A DNA stretch of 50,448 bases from Longimicrobiales bacterium (GTDB lineage: Bacteria > Gemmatimonadota > Gemmatimonadetes > Longimicrobiales > Gaopeijiaceae), in NCBI GenBank assembly GCA_046537985.1, contig JBKHJU010000001.1, positions 1 through 50,448 of the forward strand, given 5' to 3'. Made by a program: the position numbers and the translations under genes. This document shows positions 372 to 48,348 of this stretch, one piece after another. Positions within the stretch are counted from its first letter, which is position 1; every line of letters starts with the position of its first letter. The notes under the pieces were generated by a model. The model saw only the letters and a list, made by a program, of their open reading frames with translations. It made no database searches and was not told the DNA's origin.

Positions 372-563
372 CTACCGTTCCCACGCCTCGGGCTCCTCCT
401 CGTCCGGTATCGCGTCCTGGAGCAGGGCCAGGACCACCATCGTCCTCGCCTCCTCCCTCGCCTTCTCCTCCGGCACCCCCTCCCGCCGGAGGTCCTCGAC
501 CAGGGCCACGTAGCTCCGGGCGACCTCCCGGGACTGGCGGGCGAGGTCCGAGGCCAGGCTCAC
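372..563 (-). CDS. Hypothetical 63-aa acidic protein
   Basis: GTG start overlaps the portal stop (GTGA at 560..563). C-terminal part of listed ORF 372..989; the rest overlaps the portal gene. Confidence 0.4.
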   Translation of the reverse strand: MSLASDLARQSREVARSYVALVEDLRREGVPEEKAREEARTMVVLALLQDAIPDEEEPEAWER

Positions 564-1966
564 GCCCCGACCTCCTCTCGGTCCACTAGGTGTACCCGGT
601 CCGACTCGATGACCACGAGCTCCCTCGGGTCGCCGCCGATCGGCGTGAGCGACTTCGCCGTCTCCGCCCTGGTCTTGGAGAGCTCCGCCTCGTCCTTCTC
701 GTCGAGCTGGAACCGGTTGGGCCACTCGAACCGGTACCCGCCCCGAGGCTCCGGGAGGGCGCCAATCTGGATCCAGCGGTCCACGAGCGGGCGGAGAATC
801 ACCGGCTCGGCGTGGTTCGTCTCGCGCTCCTGAATCCGGCCGAGCCACTCCTTCTGGTCCTCGGTGGAGGCCCTCTCCCCCGTGGTGTTCCCGAAGAGGA
901 TCCGGAACGGCACCTCCGCCCCGGCCCCGATCAGCATCATGTATAGCTCCGCAGGGTCGGCGGGGTTGGGGGGCTCGGCGTCCAGCCACTGGCCCTCGAT
1001 CCCGGAGCCCACTATCTGCCGTCGGAGGTCGTGCATCATCTCCTCCGCCGCCTTCCCGAGGGCGTCCCGGTCGTCCTTCCCGATCTCCACGTTGGGGTCT
1101 ATGGACAGGAGCAGGATCTTGTCGGCGAGCTGCCAGTACGCCTCGGCGGTCGCCGCCGTGATCTTCTCCAGGTCCATCAGCCGGTTGAACACCCTCTTGA
1201 GCGCGGGCCTCCCGTGGACCTCGTCGGAGAGGCGGTCCTCGGCGATGTGCACCACCCGCGAGTGGTGGATCTCCTCCTCCACGTCCGGGAAGTTCTCGAC
1301 GCCCTCGGACAGCTTGATCCGGTAGACCAGCGGCTGGCCGAACCTCTCTTTACCGGTGTCCTGCTCCCACTCCGTGACCTTCACGTCCCCCTGGTGGAAG
1401 GACGAGAGGTAGAGCACGTCCTCCGGGCCGTTCACGGACTCCAGCGGGTCCTTAAGCGTCTGGTCCACGCCGGGCGTCCCCATGAAGAGCACGCCGTACT
1501 GACCGATCCTCGAGAGGCGGTCCGCCCGCTCCAGGTGGTTCCAGAGCCCGAGCCGGTCGGCCAGCTCCCGGAAGGCGCGGGTGAAGTCGGTCTCCTCCTC
1601 CGAGTCCTTCTCGTGGATCTCGGGCGGGTGCCGCCAGGTCGTCTTCGGGGCCATGTCCACGATCCGGCCCGCGATGTCCTGGCGCTGGTACCGACTCCAG
1701 TAGTGGTCGAAGTCCAGGTCGGATTCCTGGACGTATCCCGCCACCGTGTACACGTCCCGCTCGTTCCCGTACTGAAACCCCGCTTTCCTGGCGAACCGGA
1801 GCCGGTTCATGCGGTCCGACGACCCCGAGTGCTGGTGCGCCCGAGTGGCCCCACCGTTCACCGCGGCCACGGCGTTGTCCAGGCCGCGCACCCGGAGCCC
1901 CCCAGGGGTTTCGTACCAGCCGTTCCTCCGGTCCACGATGACCTGCGGTCCGCCGCTGCCAGGCAT
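560..1966 (-). CDS. Phage portal protein (DUF1073/HI1409-like)
   Basis: 468 aa of portal size and composition, placed in the head module. SD GGGGAGG sits 6 nt before the ATG. Confidence 0.65.
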   Translation of the reverse strand: MPGSGGPQVIVDRRNGWYETPGGLRVRGLDNAVAAVNGGATRAHQHSGSSDRMNRLRFARKAGFQYGNERDVYTVAGYVQESDLDFDHYWSRYQRQDIAGRIVDMAPKTTWRHPPEIHEKDSEEETDFTRAFRELADRLGLWNHLERADRLSRIGQYGVLFMGTPGVDQTLKDPLESVNGPEDVLYLSSFHQGDVKVTEWEQDTGKERFGQPLVYRIKLSEGVENFPDVEEEIHHSRVVHIAEDRLSDEVHGRPALKRVFNRLMDLEKITAATAEAYWQLADKILLLSIDPNVEIGKDDRDALGKAAEEMMHDLRRQIVGSGIEGQWLDAEPPNPADPAELYMMLIGAGAEVPFRILFGNTTGERASTEDQKEWLGRIQERETNHAEPVILRPLVDRWIQIGALPEPRGGYRFEWPNRFQLDEKDEAELSKTRAETAKSLTPIGGDPRELVVIESDRVHLVDREEVGA

Positions 1967-10756: not shown

Positions 10757-12244
10757 CTACCTGAACCAGAACTCGCGGCCCTCCTCCCTCACCGTCAGGC
10801 GGTTGAAGGCGCCCACCGCCGCGTCCGCCGCGTCTATCAGTTTGGCCCCCGGCTCGAACCGCTGCAACTGCCGGAGCAGGCTCTCGTTCCAGGGACCCCG
10901 AACGAGCTTGACGTTTCCGGCCTCCGCCTGGGCGCTCATCGGTTTGGCTCTCGCCACCTTGTCGCCGGTCACCTTGTCCCGGTGAACGTCGTACCCGGCG
11001 AGGCGAGCCACCGCCGCCAGGGCCACGTCCTTTCCGGAGGAGCCGGGCTCCTGCTCGAGCCAGATGGCGACCCCGTTACCGTCCTCTTCCGCCACCTGGT
11101 CCTGAACGTCCTCCCGCTCCTTGGCGCTCCAGAACCCCTCGGTCACGTCCTCGATGTAGTAGGTGTCCCCAGCCTTCGACATCTTCACCCCGGCGGACCG
11201 TGCGGAGGCGCCCTCCTCCTTCGTGGTGGAGGCGGAGTCCCAGTACCGCACCCGCTCCGCCTCGGCCGGGGAAGCGTCCACGATCTCGAACCAACTCCGG
11301 TCGAACACCATCCCGGAGGTTTCCCGGACCATCCAGTTCCCGCCCCGGAGTCGGTCCCGGTCCACCTTGGGCAGCGCCTCGAGGATCGACAGGTACGTGG
11401 GGTCCTCCCTCATCAGGGTGGGGTTGTCCTCGAGCTTGGCTCGGATGAACGTGACCGACCGCGGGTGGATCCTCGGGTCCATGTCCCGGTCGTCCCGGAA
11501 GGCCACCGCCTCCTCCTCCGAGTCGAACCAATGGAGGTCGCCCTCGAAGCGGAGGAACCACCGGAGGACGCCGTCCCGCTCCTCGATCGGGAACCCGTCC
11601 TCGCCGATCCACCAGGAGAGGAGCTCGTGGAGCCACCCCCCGGTCTCGTCCTCCGGCGGGACCGGGTTGCAGGTCGCCCGGACGTAGGGCCTCACCCCAC
11701 AGGTCGAGCGGTTGCGGCTGGTGAGGTACCAGAACTGGCGCTCGGTGAACTCCTCCGCCTGATCCCACGCGATGAGCGGTATCTGTGAGGACTTCCACTC
11801 CAGCCGGTCCTTCTCGTGCTGGAGGTGGTGGAACGCCACCTTGGCGCCGGAGGGAAAACGCCACTCGTGGGAGGGGTTCTGGTAGGGCTCCGCCCCGAGC
11901 TCCGGGTATATCTTGTAGCTCGTGTCCCAGAGCCCGCCCTCCTGGGTGATGCGGGGCGACGTCCTCCGGAAGATCACCGCGTGGAAGTCGGGCACGTCGG
12001 TGTGGCGGCACGCCTCCATGAGGAGCCCGTAGGTCTTTCCGCCACCGGCCTCCCCGCCGTAGAAGACGATGTCCGCCCGGGTCTGGAGGAACCTCGCCTG
12101 CGGCCCGTCGTGGGGGCGGAGCGGCGGCTCCCCGAACTCGACCGAGTGGTCCTCCCCGGAGCGGACCAGGCCCTCGTAGAACATCGCGGCGAGCTGGTCC
12201 CGGACCGTGCCGCCCGCCCTCTTGCCCCTCAGCGGCGCGGCCAA
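10757..12244 (-). CDS. terL: Terminase large subunit
   Basis: Walker A GGEAGGGKTYGL, followed by a C-terminal nuclease-like domain. 495 aa. Confidence 0.85.
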   Translation of the reverse strand: MAAPLRGKRAGGTVRDQLAAMFYEGLVRSGEDHSVEFGEPPLRPHDGPQARFLQTRADIVFYGGEAGGGKTYGLLMEACRHTDVPDFHAVIFRRTSPRITQEGGLWDTSYKIYPELGAEPYQNPSHEWRFPSGAKVAFHHLQHEKDRLEWKSSQIPLIAWDQAEEFTERQFWYLTSRNRSTCGVRPYVRATCNPVPPEDETGGWLHELLSWWIGEDGFPIEERDGVLRWFLRFEGDLHWFDSEEEAVAFRDDRDMDPRIHPRSVTFIRAKLEDNPTLMREDPTYLSILEALPKVDRDRLRGGNWMVRETSGMVFDRSWFEIVDASPAEAERVRYWDSASTTKEEGASARSAGVKMSKAGDTYYIEDVTEGFWSAKEREDVQDQVAEEDGNGVAIWLEQEPGSSGKDVALAAVARLAGYDVHRDKVTGDKVARAKPMSAQAEAGNVKLVRGPWNESLLRQLQRFEPGAKLIDAADAAVGAFNRLTVREEGREFWFR

Positions 12245-14171: not shown

Positions 14172-14362
14172 TCGTCCAGGATGTGGAGGGTGACCCCGTT
14201 CTCCTCGGCGTACTCCAGGAGCCCGTCCCAGAGGTCGTGTGAGGCCAGGAGATCGTGGGCCGTCGGCTCGAAGTTGACACACTCCAGCCCCTCGTGCCGG
14301 TCAATGAACTGCCGGACGTTCCGCTCCACCGCTCGGGCCCGCTCCTCCGGCGATCCGCTCAC
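14168..14362 (-). CDS. Hypothetical 64-aa acidic protein
   Basis: NTGA coupling on both sides. Confidence 0.45.
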   Translation of the reverse strand: MSGSPEERARAVERNVRQFIDRHEGLECVNFEPTAHDLLASHDLWDGLLEYAEENGVTLHILDE

Positions 14363-14559
14363 AGCAGCACCACCTCTCGCTCGGTCCCGTCCTCACTCCT
14401 GGTCACCACGGTTCCCCCCTCCCCTCGGATCTCGTCCACGTAAAGGCCGAGCCGGACGAACTTCATGAGGACGCCCTTCACCGACTCGCCCCGCTCCTCG
14501 GCGAGCCGCTGGAGCTCCTCGTACGTGTCGTCCGGCAGGCTCAGGTTGTACCTCGCCAT
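14359..14559 (-). CDS. Ribbon-helix-helix (CopG/Arc-like) DNA-binding protein
   Basis: MARYNLSLPDDTYEELQRLAEERGESVKGVLMKFVRLGL has the typical RHH pattern. It is the C-terminal 66 aa of the listed ORF. Confidence 0.5.
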   Translation of the reverse strand: MARYNLSLPDDTYEELQRLAEERGESVKGVLMKFVRLGLYVDEIRGEGGTVVTRSEDGTEREVVLL

Positions 14560-15146: not shown

Positions 15147-16418
15147 TCACGTGACGGCCTTCACCAGCCACACCCGCTCCTCGCCCTCCACCAGGGACCT
15201 CTTGTAACCCTCTCTCTCGTACCACTCCTCGAGCCACGTGTCCGGACGGCAGGCCAACTCCACCATCTCCGAGCCGGCCGCCTCCTCCGCCGCCCGCAGC
15301 AGGCGCCGCCCATGACCGCGGCGCCGGTACTCGGGCCTCACGAAGAGATTGCAGACGGTGGGGTCCCCGGCCGAGGAGGACGGCCACTCCAACTCCACGC
15401 ACCCGACCGCCTCACCCCGCTCGGTGAGGAGAAAACGGGAGACCGCCAGCCCCTCCACGAGAGTGTCCAGGCGGATCAGGACCAGGTCGTCGGTCTCCGG
15501 CTCCTCTCCGTCCGACCGGTTCCGTGTCGTCCGCTCCTCCCGCCATGTCTCGTCGTCAAAGGGGCCGGCGCCGCACCCCGAGCAGGTGTCCTCTCCCTCC
15601 AGCGCGGCGGTCTGGCAGAGGGGACACCTCTTGAGCTCGGCTCCGACCCCCTGCCATCGACACTCCCGAAGGACGGGAAGAATCTGACGGGCGTAGACTT
15701 CCTCAACCCGGGCCCGCGCCCGCTGCAGTTCCGACCACGGAAGCCCCTGGCGCTCCGCCTCGGCAAAGTTCCGGAACGCCTCGGCCGCAGATCGCGCCGC
15801 CCTCCCACGCATCACCGACCGCTCCAGGTCGGTCAGGTCCCAGGCGTACAGCACCGCGTGGAGGTCGCCCCCTCCGATCCTCTTGAGGAGCAGCGGATCG
15901 GTGGGCGGGTCCGCCTCGATCCGGGTCGGGGACCACTCCTCCACCTCCCACAGAATGAAGTGATCCCGGAGGTAGCTCGCGCCACCGATCTTCCGGAGGC
16001 CCCCGGGGGGAACCATCGGGACCAGGGCGTACCAGCGCTCCATCTGACGGTAGTCCGACCACTCCTCCGTGGGGGGAGCCCCTCCCACGTCCACCCGAAC
16101 CTCCAGGGTGTCGGAGCGAACCGTGGCGCGCGGGCTCCGGGCGTCGAACTCCACGAACGTCCGCCCCCTGCGAAGGTTCAACTGGACCTGCTCACGGTCG
16201 GCCCTGGCCACCGCCAGGCGGGGGCGTCCACGGCGGTCGGCCCCGGCGGTCCTCATGGCGTCCCGGAGGCTGAGAAGCGACTCGCCGCTCGCCATCCTCT
16301 CGAGCCCGGCAAGGACCGCCTCGTACTCCTCGTCCGCCCGGCGCCGCAGCGCCCGGCGGTACTCCTCGGCCCTGGCCGCGGCCTCCGCCCGGTCCATCTC
16401 CATCGTCGGCACGTCCAT
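15147..16418 (-). CDS. Multi-domain protein with zinc ribbon and C-terminal GNAT acetyltransferase
   Basis: C-terminus VGCVELEW...VCNLFVRPEYRRRGHGRRLLRAAEEAA is a GNAT motif A. CPLCQ...CSGCG is a zinc ribbon. ATG at 16418 preceded by GAGAGGAGGGAG. Confidence 0.5.
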   Translation of the reverse strand: MDVPTMEMDRAEAAARAEEYRRALRRRADEEYEAVLAGLERMASGESLLSLRDAMRTAGADRRGRPRLAVARADREQVQLNLRRGRTFVEFDARSPRATVRSDTLEVRVDVGGAPPTEEWSDYRQMERWYALVPMVPPGGLRKIGGASYLRDHFILWEVEEWSPTRIEADPPTDPLLLKRIGGGDLHAVLYAWDLTDLERSVMRGRAARSAAEAFRNFAEAERQGLPWSELQRARARVEEVYARQILPVLRECRWQGVGAELKRCPLCQTAALEGEDTCSGCGAGPFDDETWREERTTRNRSDGEEPETDDLVLIRLDTLVEGLAVSRFLLTERGEAVGCVELEWPSSSAGDPTVCNLFVRPEYRRRGHGRRLLRAAEEAAGSEMVELACRPDTWLEEWYEREGYKRSLVEGEERVWLVKAVT

Positions 16419-16440
16419 CGGTCTCCCTCCTCTCAGGGGC

Positions 16441-16513
16441 CTGTGACACACACGAGACACACACGTCTAATATACTGGGGCCCCCGCGAGCGCAAACCCC
16501 GGACTGGGAAGCA
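16441..16513 (-). promoter_or_regulatory. Candidate promoter/leader region with TATATT -10-like hexamer and (GT/CA) alternating repeats
   Basis: Low-GC 53-bp gap. The minus strand reads ...TTTGCGCTCGCGGGGGCCCCAGTATATTAGACGTGTGTGTCTCGTGTGTGTCACAG.. before the RBS of gene 15147..16418. Confidence 0.3.
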
Positions 16514-21284: not shown

Positions 21285-21839
21285 TCACCTCTGCGCTCCC
21301 GTCTCTCGGTTAATCTCTCTCAGGATGCCCCGGGCCAGGGCCTCCCGCAACACGGCGTCCGGCAGCTCCCCCCGCTCTCGGAGGCGGCGGACGGCCCGCT
21401 CCACGTGGCGGCGGCCGTGCTCCTCGAGGGTCAGGCCGGTGGCCTCGAGGAGCTCCGCCGCGGCGACGGACGGGGGCTCCCCGGGGCGCCCGTGCAGCCG
21501 GTCGTGGACCAGCCCGCCGGCGGGGACCAGACCGTCCAGGTCGGACCGTCCCAGGTGGTGGGCGGTGTGACCGCCCCGGACGCTCCGGCGGCACTCGTGG
21601 CCCGGGTCCACCAGCAGCCAGATACACGGCTCGAGCCTGACCGTCTCCCAGACCGGGCCGTGTCGCAGGACCGTCCGCCTCTCGGACCAGGACCGGGAGC
21701 GGAGCCGCGAGTAGCGGACCAGCTCCGAGTTTCGGCGACGGTACCCCCGGCCCCGCTCCTCCTCCCTCTCGCAGGCGCACGGCACCAGCGGGGATCCGCA
21801 CTCCGGGCAGGGGAGCCCGCCGGAGTCTCTGGGCCTCAC
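21285..21839 (-). CDS. Hypothetical Cys/His-rich protein; possible nuclease
   Basis: CPECG...CAC and HTAHHLG..LVHDRLH. Only the C-terminal 185 aa of the listed ORF is credible. GTGA start. Confidence 0.35.
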   Translation of the reverse strand: MRPRDSGGLPCPECGSPLVPCACEREEERGRGYRRRNSELVRYSRLRSRSWSERRTVLRHGPVWETVRLEPCIWLLVDPGHECRRSVRGGHTAHHLGRSDLDGLVPAGGLVHDRLHGRPGEPPSVAAAELLEATGLTLEEHGRRHVERAVRRLRERGELPDAVLREALARGILREINRETGAQR

Positions 21840-29649: not shown

Positions 29650-29988
29650 TCAGTCCTTCGGTGGGCTGAGGAGCACGAGCTCCCGGACCACCACGTCTGG
29701 GGTCGGGATGGTGACTCCGTCTCGGTCGTAGGACCCGTACTGGAGGCGCCCCTCCACGTAGACTCGGTCCCCCTTGTGGACGTAGTCCTCCACGAACTGC
29801 GCCATCCGGCCCCAGGCGGTCAGCCGGTGCCAGTCGGTCCGGTCGTGCTCCCGGTCGTTGGAGTCCCTCCAGTAATGGTTCGTCGCCAGCGGAAAGTTGG
29901 CGACCTTCGTGCCGTCCCCGGTGCTCCGGACGTCGGGGTCCGCCCCGACGTGGCCCACGAGGATCAGCTTGTTAACGGACCTGGCCAT
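29650..29988 (-). CDS. ssb: Single-stranded DNA-binding protein (bacterial OB-fold type)
   Basis: NKLILVGHVGADPDVRST..G..VANFPLATN...W....G......WHRL..WGRMAQFVEDYVHKGDRVYVEGRLQ is a canonical SSB core. Confidence 0.8.
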   Translation of the reverse strand: MARSVNKLILVGHVGADPDVRSTGDGTKVANFPLATNHYWRDSNDREHDRTDWHRLTAWGRMAQFVEDYVHKGDRVYVEGRLQYGSYDRDGVTIPTPDVVVRELVLLSPPKD

Positions 29989-30415
29989 CTCTCCCTCCCC
30001 TCTCGGTTGAGCCTGCGCCCCGGCCCCGAACGGGCGGGGGCAGTCGATCGGTCAGCCATCTCCAGTTCCTGCCGCTCCAGATTCTCCGAACCGCGCTCTC
30101 CCCCACGGGGAGCCCGAAGGCCTGGACCACGTCCTCGGGGTGCCACCCGGAGAGCCGGACCGCCCACACGGCCCGGACCTGGTCCTCGGTCAGCTTCGAG
30201 TTGTGGTGTTTTTCGCCGCGCATCCACCAGTGTGGTCCCCCGTTCCCCGGGTTCGGAAGGACGGGCTCGCGACAGCCGGGGAGGTCCTCCTCGTACAGGT
30301 ACCGGTGTGCGGTCCGGCGGGAGCAGGACCAGAGCGCGGCCACGTGTCCCGAGGTCACTGTCCGCTCCCGGACGAGCCTCCTGGCCGCGTCGACGGCCCG
30401 CGCCGGCGGCGTCAC
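29972..30415 (-). CDS. HTH DNA-binding protein
   Basis: VTSGHVAALWSCSRRTAHRYL, plus a second helical segment. GTG start overlaps the upstream stop. The N-terminal 90 aa of the listed ORF is discarded. Confidence 0.45.
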   Translation of the reverse strand: MTPPARAVDAARRLVRERTVTSGHVAALWSCSRRTAHRYLYEEDLPGCREPVLPNPGNGGPHWWMRGEKHHNSKLTEDQVRAVWAVRLSGWHPEDVVQAFGLPVGESAVRRIWSGRNWRWLTDRLPPPVRGRGAGSTERGGRDGQVR

Positions 30416-32822: not shown

Positions 32823-32999
32823 TTATCGTCCGGAGACGCCGGGCTGTATCTCGTCGGCCCGGTCCCAGCACTCCGTCGCCGCCGCCTCCGCGACGCGGGC
32901 GTCCTCCTCCATGCCGTGCTCCCGGTAGGCGCGGGCGATCTTCAGGTGGGCGTCCCCGGTCCGCAGGTGGCGGCGGGCCTCGGTCTGGACCTGACTCAT
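32823..32999 (-). CDS. Hypothetical 58-aa protein; first gene after the early promoter
   Basis: ATG preceded by GAGAGAGGAGAGAGAG. Sits 45 nt downstream of the predicted -10. Confidence 0.45.
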   Translation of the reverse strand: MSQVQTEARRHLRTGDAHLKIARAYREHGMEEDARVAEAAATECWDRADEIQPGVSGR

Positions 33000-33043
33000 C
33001 TCTCTCTCCTCTCTCGGTGGTCCCTCTCTCATCCGTACATCCA

Positions 33044-33072
33044 AATATACGCGCCCCCTGGAACAATGTCAA
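33044..33072 (-). promoter_or_regulatory. Sigma70-type promoter: -35 TTGACA (33072..33067), 17-nt spacer, -10 TATATT (33049..33044)
   Basis: Consensus hexamers with exact 17-bp spacing, in a 335-bp non-coding gap of a 70 % GC genome. Confidence 0.5.
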
Positions 33073-33088
33073 GGCTTTGTTCCAGGGG
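33055..33088. promoter_or_regulatory. Operator-like inverted repeat overlapping the promoter: CCCCTGGAACAA-N10-TTGTTCCAGGGG
   Basis: Perfect 12-bp arms. The loop contains the -35 hexamer. Confidence 0.5.
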
Positions 33089-33335
33089 TGGGGCGAGGTC
33101 TCCGGAGGGGGTTGGGTCTCGCGCATGCGGTGGGGAAAGAGAAAACGCCCGGCCCACGAAAGGGACCGGGCGTCTCCCACACAGAGGTGGCGGGCCTCGC
33201 CAGAGAGATAGAAGAGAGTCGGCCGGGGACGAGGCACCGCCGGATCCCGCTGAGAGGTCCCGGCTCCGACGCTCGAAACCTAACCGGGTGCGGTCCCGGC
33301 GGACAACTCCCCGGGCGGACGTTTCACGTGGAACG

Positions 33336-34031
33336 TCACGGCAGCCCGGCGCGTCCGAGGGCGTAGGAGGTCGCCGCCACGGTCGCCAGCTTCCCGGCGC
33401 TCCTCCCGAGCTCGGCGAGGAACCCCGGCTCCGCCGCCTCCCTCCACCGGTCCCTGGCCCGCCGCGTTGCCTCCAGCTCCTCGATCAGGGACCGCATCCT
33501 CCCGTCCCGGGCCCGGATCCGGGAGCGGAGGTCGGCGTTGTCCTCCCGGAGGAGCGCCGCCCGGCGCTCGAGGCCCGCCCGGATCCGGGCGGCGGCCGAC
33601 TCCTGGCGGTCGTCGGCCCGCTCCCTCCTCTCCAGCGCGGCGAGGCTCGAGTCCGCCAGCGGCAGAAGGACCTCGGGCCTCACGGGCGCCGCGCTCATGG
33701 CCAGGCGCCGGATATCGTGGAGGTTCCTTTCCAGGTCCGACGACGCCCGGGCCTCGGCACCCGCGGCCTCGCCCTCGTCTCTCCGGGCGATCCGGAGCTC
33801 CCGGCGCAGAGAGTCGGACTCCTCGGCCCGGCGGGTGCTGTCCGTGGCGTAGGTTTCCTCCAAGTCGGCGAGTCGGGCGGAGTCTCGCCTCGCCCGCTCC
33901 ACGGCCCGCTCCGCCCGAGTGTCCGCCTCCCGAGCCCGGCCCACGAGCTCCGCCCGCTCCGAGGCGCCCCAGGCCGCGAGTCCGAGAAGGGACGCGGCGA
34001 GGACCCACCCCCCCACGCAGGCCCACCTCAC
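33336..34031 (-). CDS. Membrane-anchored coiled-coil protein (spanin-like or lysis accessory)
   Basis: N-terminal hydrophobic segment WVLAASLLGLAAW, followed by about 200 aa of heptad-rich sequence. GTGA start. Confidence 0.45.
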   Translation of the reverse strand: MRWACVGGWVLAASLLGLAAWGASERAELVGRAREADTRAERAVERARRDSARLADLEETYATDSTRRAEESDSLRRELRIARRDEGEAAGAEARASSDLERNLHDIRRLAMSAAPVRPEVLLPLADSSLAALERRERADDRQESAAARIRAGLERRAALLREDNADLRSRIRARDGRMRSLIEELEATRRARDRWREAAEPGFLAELGRSAGKLATVAATSYALGRAGLP

Positions 34032-34334: not shown

Positions 34335-34904
34335 CTACTCCCCCATCTCGGGCAGGCCCCGGGACCGGAGGGCCTCGTTCGCCCGGCGGAGAAGGTCGCC
34401 CTCGAGACGGAGCGGGCGTCGGGGAACCGCGAGCTCCACGTGGGGAAGGTCGTCAAAGGACTGGTCGTGGAACTCGTCGTCCATGTCCCAGTCCACCCCG
34501 TGCCGGATCTCCACCCCGTTCTCGTGGGCCAGAGCGGCGAGGGCGCCGTGCATGTAGTAGAACCTTCCGGCGTCCTTCGCGTAGCCCCGAATCGCCCGGC
34601 GGAGCTCCGGGGAGACCTCGGGCATCCGGGGCCACCGAACCGGGTAGGGTGCGGCGTCGACCGCCTGGGCGTGCTCCTCGGGGTCGTACCTCCCCTCGCC
34701 GTCCCGGGGGATGTGCCGGGAGTCCATCGTCCTGGACGCCCCACGGCGAACGTTCCGGACCTGCTGCCGGGGGTCCCTCCCGGCCTCGAGGATGGACACG
34801 TCAAAGAACTGGATCAGCTTCTCGAAGAGGAGGGCCAGTTCCGGGTGCGCCTCCTCGAGCTCGGCCCGCGAGTTACTCCCGTACCGGTAAGGTCCACCGC
34901 TCAC
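34335..34904 (-). CDS. Endolysin, peptidase M15 (VanY / L-Ala-D-Glu peptidase type)
   Basis: SRHIPRDGEG...AVDAAPY and HGVDWDMDDEFHD...PHVEL are M15 zinc-ligand motifs. GTG start preceded by GGGAGG with a 5-nt spacer. Confidence 0.6.
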   Translation of the reverse strand: MSGGPYRYGSNSRAELEEAHPELALLFEKLIQFFDVSILEAGRDPRQQVRNVRRGASRTMDSRHIPRDGEGRYDPEEHAQAVDAAPYPVRWPRMPEVSPELRRAIRGYAKDAGRFYYMHGALAALAHENGVEIRHGVDWDMDDEFHDQSFDDLPHVELAVPRRPLRLEGDLLRRANEALRSRGLPEMGE

Positions 34905-47286: not shown

Positions 47287-48348
47287 TCAGGGCGCCGAGC
47301 GCAGGTGCACGATCCCGTGGATGGTGGTGTCCTGGTCCGTGGCGTTGCTCTTGATCTGAGGGCCGCCGACGAAGAGGACTCGGAACTTCGTGATGAAGGG
47401 GTTCTTCTCCCACTGGACGGTCGTGATGGCCTGGGCCTCGGTGAGGTCCAGGACGTTCCTGGTCATCTGGACCAGGACCACGTTGTCGTCCGCCAGGGCG
47501 TCGTTGGGACGGACCGCCTCGATGTCCTCGAACGCCATGATCCGCTCCATGACGGTGCGGTTGATGACCGCCCCGCCCGAAGTCTCGTAGTCCGACTGGA
47601 CCTCGGCCCAGTAGTTCTTCGGGACGTACATGACGAACGGCCCGAAGAGGCTGGAGGCGTACGCCTCCGCCAGCATGCGCTCGGTGTCGCCCACCGGGTC
47701 GCCGCTGGCCCCGTCCCAGTCGTCGTTCAGGTCCACCGTCAGGCGGTTGCTCGCCGACGTGAGCCCGGGGATTCCGCCGCCGGTCGGACCGCCCAGCGCG
47801 AGCCCGTTGGTGATGAGGTCCTCGAGACGCCTGGCGACCTTCGCCGCGGCGAGCTCAGCGTTCGTGGTGTCCAGGGGCTCCCCCTTCGTGCGGCTCGCGG
47901 CGAGCTGCCGCCAGTCCACCCGGAAGCCCTTGGCGATCACGGGCACCGGAATGAGGTCGCCCTCGAAGTTCGCGCGGTCCTCCTGGGGAGCCGTGTCGCC
48001 GTCGAAGCTGACCTCGGCGTCCTCGAAGTCCTCCACGCGCTGCGTCCTCCGGGTGACCGTTCCGATGGAGACGGGCTCCACCAGACCGCGATTCCGGAGG
48101 TCCTCCACGATGGTGAGGCGCTCCCGGAGGACGCCGTTCACAATCGAGTCCAGCCGCTCCCACTCGTGCTTGAGCAGGGTGGCGTTGTGAACGTTGATCT
48201 CGGAGTAGGGGTTGGCGTTCGCGGCGAGGACCGGACGCATGTACCGCATGATCCTCCGGTCCCCGAGCCCGGACCCCACGTTGCCGAGCTGGTGGTGGTC
48301 CAGGTCCACCCCGTACGGGTTGATGAGCTGCACGTTCGGGGGAGTCAT
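47287..48348 (-). CDS. Major capsid protein (HK97 fold; lambda gpE-like placement)
   Basis: 353 aa, preceded by a decoration-like gene and the scaffold gene. Acidic. Confidence 0.7.
   Translation of the reverse strand: MTPPNVQLINPYGVDLDHHQLGNVGSGLGDRRIMRYMRPVLAANANPYSEINVHNATLLKHEWERLDSIVNGVLRERLTIVEDLRNRGLVEPVSIGTVTRRTQRVEDFEDAEVSFDGDTAPQEDRANFEGDLIPVPVIAKGFRVDWRQLAASRTKGEPLDTTNAELAAAKVARRLEDLITNGLALGGPTGGGIPGLTSASNRLTVDLNDDWDGASGDPVGDTERMLAEAYASSLFGPFVMYVPKNYWAEVQSDYETSGGAVINRTVMERIMAFEDIEAVRPNDALADDNVVLVQMTRNVLDLTEAQAITTVQWEKNPFITKFRVLFVGGPQIKSNATDQDTTIHGIVHLRSAP

Follow-up and report, generated by a model that had tools for sequence, protein, structure and literature searches.

A putative operator dyad bracketing the −35 hexamer of a predicted early promoter in a tailed-phage genome binned with Longimicrobiales

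Introduction

Among described phage control regions, the arrangement closest to the one reported here is that of the P2 family, whose C repressors (P2 C, P2 Hy dis C, and WPhi C) recognize half-sites 22–26 base pairs (bp) apart that bracket a promoter hexamer (PMC1904268). In P2, C uses a pair of 8-bp half-sites, spaced 22 bp, with the −10 between them, and those of P2 Hy dis flank the −35; bound at Pe, the small dimeric repressor of this family blocks RNA polymerase (PMC1904268). We describe a 45-bp element at positions 33044–33088 of the 50,448-bp contig JBKHJU010000001.1 (assembly GCA_046537985.1), referred to below as the window. The window is a near-complete tailed-phage genome, binned in a metagenome-assembled genome (MAG) of Longimicrobiales (Gemmatimonadota). 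Read on the minus strand, the element resembles a sigma70-type promoter whose −35 hexamer falls in the loop of a perfect 12-bp inverted repeat, hereafter the dyad. One relative of the phage was found, by a search for homologs of its endolysin: a 56.8-kb Logan contig (L015) with a lysin 80% identical.

The dyad resembles the P2-family sites in that half-sites of 8–10 bp bracket an early-promoter hexamer, at the 22-bp spacing seen in P2. It differs in that the P2 half-sites are direct repeats, whereas the window holds a perfect inverted repeat with longer arms. In addition, no C-repressor homolog, integrase, or divergent Pc was found in the window, where transcription runs in one direction. The lambdoid OR/OL regions, bound by CI and Cro, would share with the window a dyad operator over a strong early sigma70 promoter that gates the early programme, and a promoter-operator module placed at a mosaic boundary. 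Lambda employs three tandem 17-bp operators, with half-sites spaced ~9 bp apart, and a divergent PRM. In contrast, the window has a single dyad, with half-sites spaced 22 bp apart; it lacks a divergent gene, and no protein matched the HTH_3 or Cro families at curated thresholds.

A further parallel is found in the L010–L014 phages (ParB-like nuclease homolog P0002), a distant metagenomic group and the only one that a homolog search with the ParB-like gene of the window returned, which combine TTGACA-18-TACTAT, a perfect palindrome TGACACGTACGTGTCA on the −35, and a GAGAGGAGA-type GA-rich leader with a downstream ParB-like gene (51% identity to that of the window). Their palindrome, however, has a different sequence and 8-bp arms without a spacer, and it starts inside the −35. 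Next to this promoter the phages also have an HTH_26 gene of the Cro/C1 type, and their intergenic region is divergent; both features are absent here, and their promoter regions are not homologous to that of the window. More distant lysin-bearing phages likewise show a terminator followed by a strong promoter at the late/early junction (TTGACA-17-TAGACT in L023), without the dyad; the lysin contexts L016, L018, L020, L022, L023, and the P0033 contig were set aside as different phages that lack it. A literature search on transcription signals in phages of Gemmatimonadota or Longimicrobiales returned no relevant work.

Results

Architecture of the Promoter and the Dyad

The element reads, on the minus strand, CCCCTGGAACAA (33088–33077), AGCC, TTGACA (33072–33067), TTGTTCCAGGGG (33066–33055), GCGCG, and TATATT (33049–33044). 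Its parts, together with the predicted start and the leader, are the following (positions of the arms are relative to the predicted start).

33077..33088, minus strand: left, promoter-distal dyad arm CCCCTGGAACAA, about −51 to −40; 12/12 identical in L015
33067..33072, minus strand: −35 hexamer TTGACA (6/6 consensus), at the 3′ end of the 10-nucleotide (nt) loop between the arms; TGGACA (5/6) at the same position in L015
33055..33066, minus strand: right, promoter-proximal dyad arm TTGTTCCAGGGG, about −29 to −18; 11/12 identical in L015
33044..33049, minus strand: −10 hexamer TATATT (5/6 consensus), 17 nt from the −35; 6/6 identical and equally spaced in L015
33036..33038, minus strand: predicted transcription start, 6–8 nt past the −10, placed by standard sigma70 geometry
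33000..33035, minus strand: 5′ leader with the GA-rich Shine-Dalgarno block GAGAGAGGGACCACCGAGAGAGGAGAGAGAG at its end, read directly from the sequence

The repeat finder returned 12-nt arms that are 100% complementary and separated by 10 nt; the core pattern is CCTGGAACAA-N10-TTGTTCCAGG. The last six bases of the loop are the −35 hexamer, and the first 12 of the 17 nt in the spacer belong to the right arm. A promoter consensus scanner scored TTGACA-17-TATATT at 11 of 12 consensus matches, and consensus scans, including an independent rescan, found it to be the sole promoter-like match on either strand of the window. In 300 simulated genomes, drawn from a first-order Markov model with the composition of the window, matches of at least 11/12 never occurred and those of at least 10/12 averaged 0.07 per genome. 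Perfect 12-bp inverted repeats whose arms are 0–20 nt apart are expected by chance 0.3 times per genome. The inverted repeat alone is therefore unremarkable, and its coincidence with the only promoter is the improbable part.

The site shows the features of a sigma70 promoter, namely a −35 near TTGACA, a −10 with A2 and T6, and a 17-nt spacer. It lies in non-coding DNA in the same orientation as the gene that follows, with the −10 ending 44 nt upstream of the ATG at 32999. A first-pass annotation of the same DNA had proposed a minus-strand sigma70 promoter with this spacing, its −35 inside the loop of a perfect 12-bp inverted repeat, a purine-rich leader ahead of the gene at 32823..32999, and a role in early transcription. 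Direct reading and the consensus scan agree on the promoter, and the repeat finder on the inverted repeat. The GA-rich block does precede the ATG at 32999, and the early assignment agrees with a unique consensus site, on the coding strand, in the gap between a terminator and the early genes, at equal spacing in L015.

The two half-sites are 22 bp apart centre to centre, which corresponds to ~2 helical turns and places them on one face of the DNA. Assuming a start at ~33037, their centres fall at ~−45.5 and ~−23.5, and the dyad axis at ~−34.5, at the 5′ edge of the −35. Single half-sites with at most one mismatch also occur at 10884, 13618, 25823, and 42798; all are unpaired and most lie in coding DNA, and with four observed against ~1.6 expected by chance the excess is not convincing. 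A sigma54 reading of TGGAAC...TTGA was rejected as well, the GG and GC elements being one base out of register and the place of GC being taken by GA in the window and by GG in L015. As a DNA hairpin, the dyad reaches only −12.5 kcal/mol with a 10-nt loop; a weak hairpin with a loop of this size disfavours extrusion, and the cruciform reading was dropped.

Conservation of the Element in a Related Phage

L015 is syntenic with the window from the tape-measure gene to the gene of a protein of 587 amino acids (aa), at ~79% DNA identity. Its gap reads CCCCTGGAACAA-ACCC-TGGACA-TTGTTCCAGGAG-GGGTG-TATATT, with the same 10-nt loop and 17-nt spacer, and this is its sole promoter-like site in 20 kb. Neutral identity between the two phages is 59%, as estimated at 1,347 four-fold degenerate sites of eleven genes that they share. 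Compared with this value, the two arms are 23/24 identical (P = 6e-5) and their 10-bp cores match at 20/20 positions (P = 3e-5), the right-arm core TTGTTCCAGG included; the only change in the right arm is in its outer GGGG, which is GGAG in L015. Identity is 6/6 in the −10 hexamer (P = 0.04), 8/10 in the loop, including the change of TTGACA to TGGACA (not significant), and 40/45 over the whole 45 nt (P = 1.3e-5). The upstream flank (33089–33134) is 29% identical with a 53-nt indel, and the stretch from 33015 to 33043 is 52% identical; both are neutral-like, and the distal part of the leader is conserved. In this comparison, the promoter and dyad appear as a conserved island amid drifting DNA.

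A neighbouring structure allowed a comparison with a hairpin of known type.

33136..33173, minus strand: intrinsic terminator of the late/lysis operon, ACGCCCGGTCC-CTTTCGT-GGGCCGGGCGT followed by TTTCTCTTT; RNA fold −30.8 kcal/mol, z = −4.9

This terminator lies 57 nt upstream of the dyad. In L015 it retains its hairpin and T-run at 45% sequence identity, with compensatory pair changes. Hairpins that need structure alone thus appear to evolve freely between the two phages, and the dyad does not. Its single outer-pair change in L015 breaks the pairing without compensation, and the 20 core positions are unchanged. Since the adjacent terminator drifts to 45% while the arms remain at 23/24, the dyad appears to be constrained in sequence, a pattern that fits sequence-specific recognition, as expected of a candidate protein-binding site, more closely than it fits a hairpin of RNA or DNA.

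The DNA homology between the two phages covers the promoter and leader and stops exactly at the ATG of the first early gene. Beyond this point, window positions 32995–31648 are exchanged for unrelated genes at 11391–14170 of L015, and homology resumes within the gene of an 89-aa protein. The exchanged pairs include the first gene product (58 aa in the window, 55 aa in L015) and a 252-aa and a 256-aa protein, and a ParB-like gene of the window is absent from L015. Because homology ends at the ATG and the genes downstream have been swapped, the promoter-operator-leader module appears to be the unit that selection keeps. The shared GA-rich leader may have served as a recombination boundary at this mosaic junction.

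Searches for further relatives added nothing to this comparison. Megablast of the region found no close relative among GenBank phages, and IMG/VR returned none when queried with three proteins from the flanks, the aligned 587-aa protein, the core of the dyad, or the conserved non-coding block of the gap. One exact match, L002, is an unrelated low-GC contig, and the 89-aa protein retrieved only itself. The composite pattern GGAACAA-N4-TTGACA-TTGTTCC gave seven matches in genomes and metagenomes, all of low GC; these are unrelated to the window by tblastx, and several are ordinary terminator hairpins.

Genomic Context at the Late/Early Junction

The window has ~70% GC and a negative GC skew throughout, and by frame analysis of third-position GC (GC3) all credible genes lie on the minus strand. 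Open reading frames (ORFs) run off both ends, and the two ends do not connect in frame. A Logan contig of 4.5 kb matches the window at 100% identity. The main landmarks are the following.

560–1966, minus strand: portal
10757–12244, minus strand: terminase
47287–48348, minus strand: capsid
34335–34904, minus strand: endolysin
33336–34031, minus strand: 231-aa membrane/coiled-coil protein, last late gene, ending at 33336
32823..32999, minus strand: first early gene, of 58 aa and without a family match, a cargo gene not conserved in L015
26243–27049: replication initiator with a helix-turn-helix (HTH) at its N-terminus

The minus strand leads from the terminase and portal across the contig ends to the capsid, after which it encodes in order a tape-measure protein, a 1183-aa tail protein, holin-like genes, the endolysin, a 101-aa protein, and the 231-aa protein. 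Past the gap follow the 58-aa gene, the ParB-like nuclease, the 252-aa and 89-aa proteins, HhH-GPD, a 147-aa protein, a single-stranded DNA-binding protein (SSB), and Mu-Gam, and then the 587-aa protein, the replication initiator, a DnaQ-type exonuclease, two DNA methylases, and further genes. The 335-nt gap at 33001..33335 is thus where the late/lysis operon ends and the early/replication operon begins. This gap had been described as the largest non-coding stretch of the genome, a statement that holds on the GC3-based gene map to the extent that this map, which is approximate, can be trusted. The 231-aa protein is almost wholly deleted in L015 (10888–10990), where ~30 N-terminal codons remain, and it is therefore dispensable or strain-specific.

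The first early gene was called automatically as a 73-aa frame from a TTG at 33044 (32823–33044). This call is probably too long because its start overlaps the −10 hexamer; the 58-aa product from the ATG at 32999 is more plausible, since the recurrent leader GAGAGGAGAGAGAG precedes it. This leader recurs ahead of at least seven other genes, and near-identical copies stand directly before the ATGs at 32999, 31310, 29988, 29614, 28891, 21150, and 6502. It is an unusually long, stereotyped Shine-Dalgarno/GA-repeat element. A leader of the GAGAGGAGAGAGAG type is present in L015 too, and the unrelated L010 phages have it as GAGAGGAGAccgag.

A second AT-rich intergenic patch was noticed at 16416–16513 on the minus strand. 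It contains TATATT (16475–16470) with a G-rich spacer and no −35, followed by two direct copies of CGTGTGTGTC in tandem, at a period of 11 nt. The patch is a candidate middle/late promoter that would require a phage factor.

Other Elements in the Gap

Two further features were recognized within the gap.

33185..33287, minus strand: ultra-conserved non-coding block, 96/103 identical to L015 (P ~6e-15)
33318..33337, minus strand: palindrome without a spacer, GACGTTCCAC|GTGAAACGTC, that overlaps the stop codon of the 231-aa (last late) gene

The block sits between the last late gene and the terminator, and two 1-nt indels relative to L015 show that it is not coding. Its predicted fold is a long hairpin whose CU-repeat loop, CUCUCUUCUAUCUCUCU, is complementary to the GA-rich leaders of the phage. 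No Rfam family matched the block at its gathering score, and L015 showed no covariation. Pairing of the loop with the leaders was discounted as driven by composition, given that 27 of 200 shuffles were as good and that L015 does not keep the best specific match. The block could be a small RNA (sRNA) derived from the 3′ untranslated region (3′-UTR) or an anti-leader element. The palindrome is conserved at 16 of 20 positions in L015, with its CACGTG core intact. L023 has a perfect 24-bp zero-spacer palindrome, CCGGGAATTTCC|GGAAATTCCCGG, at 11361–11384, right after its last late gene. The block and the stop-codon palindrome may outweigh the promoter in importance.

Candidate Binding Proteins

Three phage proteins had been named by the first-pass annotation as HTH or ribbon-helix-helix (RHH) candidates for binding the dyad.

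29972..30415, minus strand: candidate dyad binder, 147 aa, two HTH-like three-helix units in the model; 80% identical in L015
31393..31662, minus strand: candidate regulator, 89 aa, first gene where L015 homology resumes; 56% identical
14359..14559, minus strand: candidate RHH protein, 66 aa

All three gave only sub-threshold HTH or RHH signals. The 147-aa protein matched HTH_17 and HTH_23 below threshold, and its AlphaFold2 (AF2) model is of low confidence (predicted local distance difference test, pLDDT, 56). The 89-aa protein scored 17.4 bits for HTH_31 against a cutoff of 27, and its AF2 model has three long helices (pLDDT 65). The 66-aa protein came close to its cutoffs (RHH_5, 25.1 bits vs. 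26; RHH_1, 19.5 vs. 20.5). The 58-aa product of the first early gene was excluded as a conserved dyad ligand because L015 lacks it. The ORF at 21285–21836 (minus strand) encodes a CxxC...CxC zinc-ribbon-like N-terminus and a helical C-terminus without a family match; it is a further possible regulator, in the early/middle region. The ligand of the dyad is most likely encoded by the phage and common to both related phages; it may also be encoded by the host.

Discussion

A Putative Operator over the Predicted Early Promoter

We favour, with a probability of roughly 55%, the reading that the element is an early promoter of the sigma70/SigA type, used by host RNA polymerase, with a putative dyad operator bracketing its −35. 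Host RNA polymerase would start the early/replication operon here, just past the late/lysis terminator, with transcription beginning ~37 nt before the GA-rich ribosome-binding leader. The operator would comprise two half-sites of 10–12 bp, 22 bp apart on the same DNA face and bracketing the −35. A sequence-specific dimer or dimer of dimers on the dyad would lie over the −35 and over the spacer's upstream half; in doing so it would exclude sigma region 4 and turn early transcription off. The bound protein would act as a repressor, because covering the −35 and half of the spacer competes with sigma region 4; a 17-nt spacer and a consensus −35 also argue against a MerR-type or class II activator. 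Its role would be early shut-off by negative feedback, or immunity. Because no lysogeny module is evident, shut-off by a conserved early protein seems the better candidate than prophage immunity.

These parts of the reading differ in strength. From the sequence, the promoter interpretation is strongly supported, its activity and start being predicted. The operator interpretation is supported, by a clean footprint drawn from a single relative. Repression, the binding of a protein, and its identity are what we infer from this arrangement. Of the earlier proposal of a repressor operator, the operator is supported by the phylogenetic footprint (23/24 in the arms, P = 6e-5), and the repressor is a putative one.

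Several observations weigh against this reading. Among the scanned ORFs, Pfam and PHROGs revealed no integrase and no CI/Cro-type repressor, and no antirepressor was detected, so that a classical immunity function is without support. The hallmarks of a temperate CI/Cro immunity switch are likewise missing from the window, which has no lysogeny gene, genes on one strand only, and no divergent promoter. All HTH and RHH matches among the scanned window proteins fall below curated cutoffs, and no binder was assigned; Foldseek searches of the PDB with the low-confidence models of the 147-aa and 89-aa proteins gave nothing meaningful. The window contains no second paired copy of the half-sites, and many phage repressors work through several sites. 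Perfect 12-bp arms exceed typical operators in length and exactness and resemble a structural hairpin. The −35 is less conserved than the arms, and the footprint comes from L015 only.

Alternative Roles of the Palindrome

The conservation of the arms argues for a protein ligand of whatever kind, and the dyad could bind something other than a repressor, such as an activator of class-II-like type, a nucleoid protein or global regulator of the host, or a protein of replication or recombination, for instance at an origin or initiator site. The imperfect −35 of L015 (TGGACA) could suggest a need for activation, although the −35 of the window is already consensus. Activators usually sit at −41.5 or −61.5, and a 17-nt spacer rules out MerR-type spacer activators; a dyad centred at ~−34.5 with one half-site in the spacer would collide with RNA polymerase. 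A replication or recombination role could be read from the N-terminal HTH of the replication initiator, from the location in the largest non-coding region, and from the swapped-gene junction 90 nt away, but neither iterons nor an AT-rich unwinding element are found nearby, and the dyad is kept in L015, where the ParB-like gene beside it is absent. As to a host regulator, the scan of bacterial genomes with the composite pattern returned unrelated low-GC matches only, and this pattern misses host sites that lack TTGACA. We regard a ligand of these kinds as unlikely. The palindrome could also act as RNA, as a back-up terminator, an insulator, or a 3′-end stabiliser against read-through, with the −35 in its loop by chance. 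Like Rho-independent terminators, the dyad forms a GC-containing perfect stem on the transcribed strand past an operon, here downstream of a bona fide terminator. Its RNA hairpin (−22 kcal/mol, z = −4.2) persists in the fold of the whole gap, long perfect arms are typical of structural hairpins, and several unrelated low-GC metagenome matches to the composite pattern are terminator hairpins. Unlike such terminators, it has a large 10-nt loop and no adjacent U-tract, the stem being followed by GCGCGUAUAUUU in the window (GCGCG) and GGGUGUAUAUUC in L015 (GGGTG). The scanner did not call it, and a strong canonical terminator already stands upstream. Moreover, it is the sequence and not the structure that is conserved: at 59% neutral identity, the 20 core stem positions show no change and no compensatory pairs, and the broken outer pair was left uncompensated, while the genuine terminator nearby drifted with compensation. 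An RNA role is, in our view, improbable.

It could further be argued that the promoter is real and the palindrome a chance or historical feature without function, given that 0.3 such repeats are expected per genome and that only one copy exists. We consider this very improbable, as the repeat coincides with the single promoter and its arms are conserved far above the neutral level, next to flanks that are neutral-like. A broader proposal would make the whole 335-nt gap a control hub, feeding a near genome-long unit from a single host-type promoter. The dyad would then be served by a regulator of unrecognised fold, a possibility raised because no conserved early protein passes the thresholds of DNA-binding families, and the block at 33185–33287 would give an anti-leader RNA, derived from the late 3′-UTR, with its CU-repeat loop pairing to the GA-rich leaders of many genes. 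If true, early genes would be shut off twice, transcriptionally through the dyad and translationally through the anti-leader RNA; this dual shut-off is a long shot.

The Host of the Phage

The reading of the element as a sigma70-type promoter presupposes a bacterial host, and part of the evidence could be read otherwise. In an archaeon, TATATT would be a TATA box and the TTGACA coincidental. The top portal match is Halorubrum phage Hardycor1 (36.5%), with other haloarchaeal viruses next. The phage also has an acidic proteome (D+E 16.5%, median isoelectric point, pI, 5.2). However, both capsid and portal are equally close to Brevundimonas phages, and Longimicrobiales MAGs have been reported from hypersaline soils and lakes, which would account for the acidity. 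The endolysin matches phrog_465 (PHROG endolysin) at 1.2e-23 as well as structures of the phage T5 L-alanyl-D-glutamate peptidase/M15C type, and its homologs are named CwlK; a peptidoglycan L-Ala-D-Glu endopeptidase accompanied by a holin-like gene speaks against an archaeal host. The same holds for the bacterial-type SSB, the Mu Gam gene, the U-tract intrinsic terminators, and the binning of the window with Longimicrobiales. Finally, a 6/6 TTGACA exactly 17 nt upstream of the TATATT has a calculated chance of ~2e-4 given the composition. An archaeal host is therefore barely credible. The host would be a bacterium of high GC, probably halophilic; its assignment to Longimicrobiales, by binning alone, is tentative.

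Implications

The design proposed here, a repressor site over an early promoter, is a familiar one, and its payoff would be modest, practical rather than paradigm-changing. Gemmatimonadota are widespread and barely cultured, and the promoter-operator module of the window is concrete and testable. The 45-bp fragment could serve as bait for the protein that binds it, as a part in expression tools for high-GC halophilic bacteria, and as an anchor for the map of early and late genes in this phage lineage. If the favoured reading holds, canonical promoters of the TTGACA-17-TATAAT type would be used even in a 70% GC background, against which they are conspicuous, and a single scan may locate the point at which the programme of such a phage begins.

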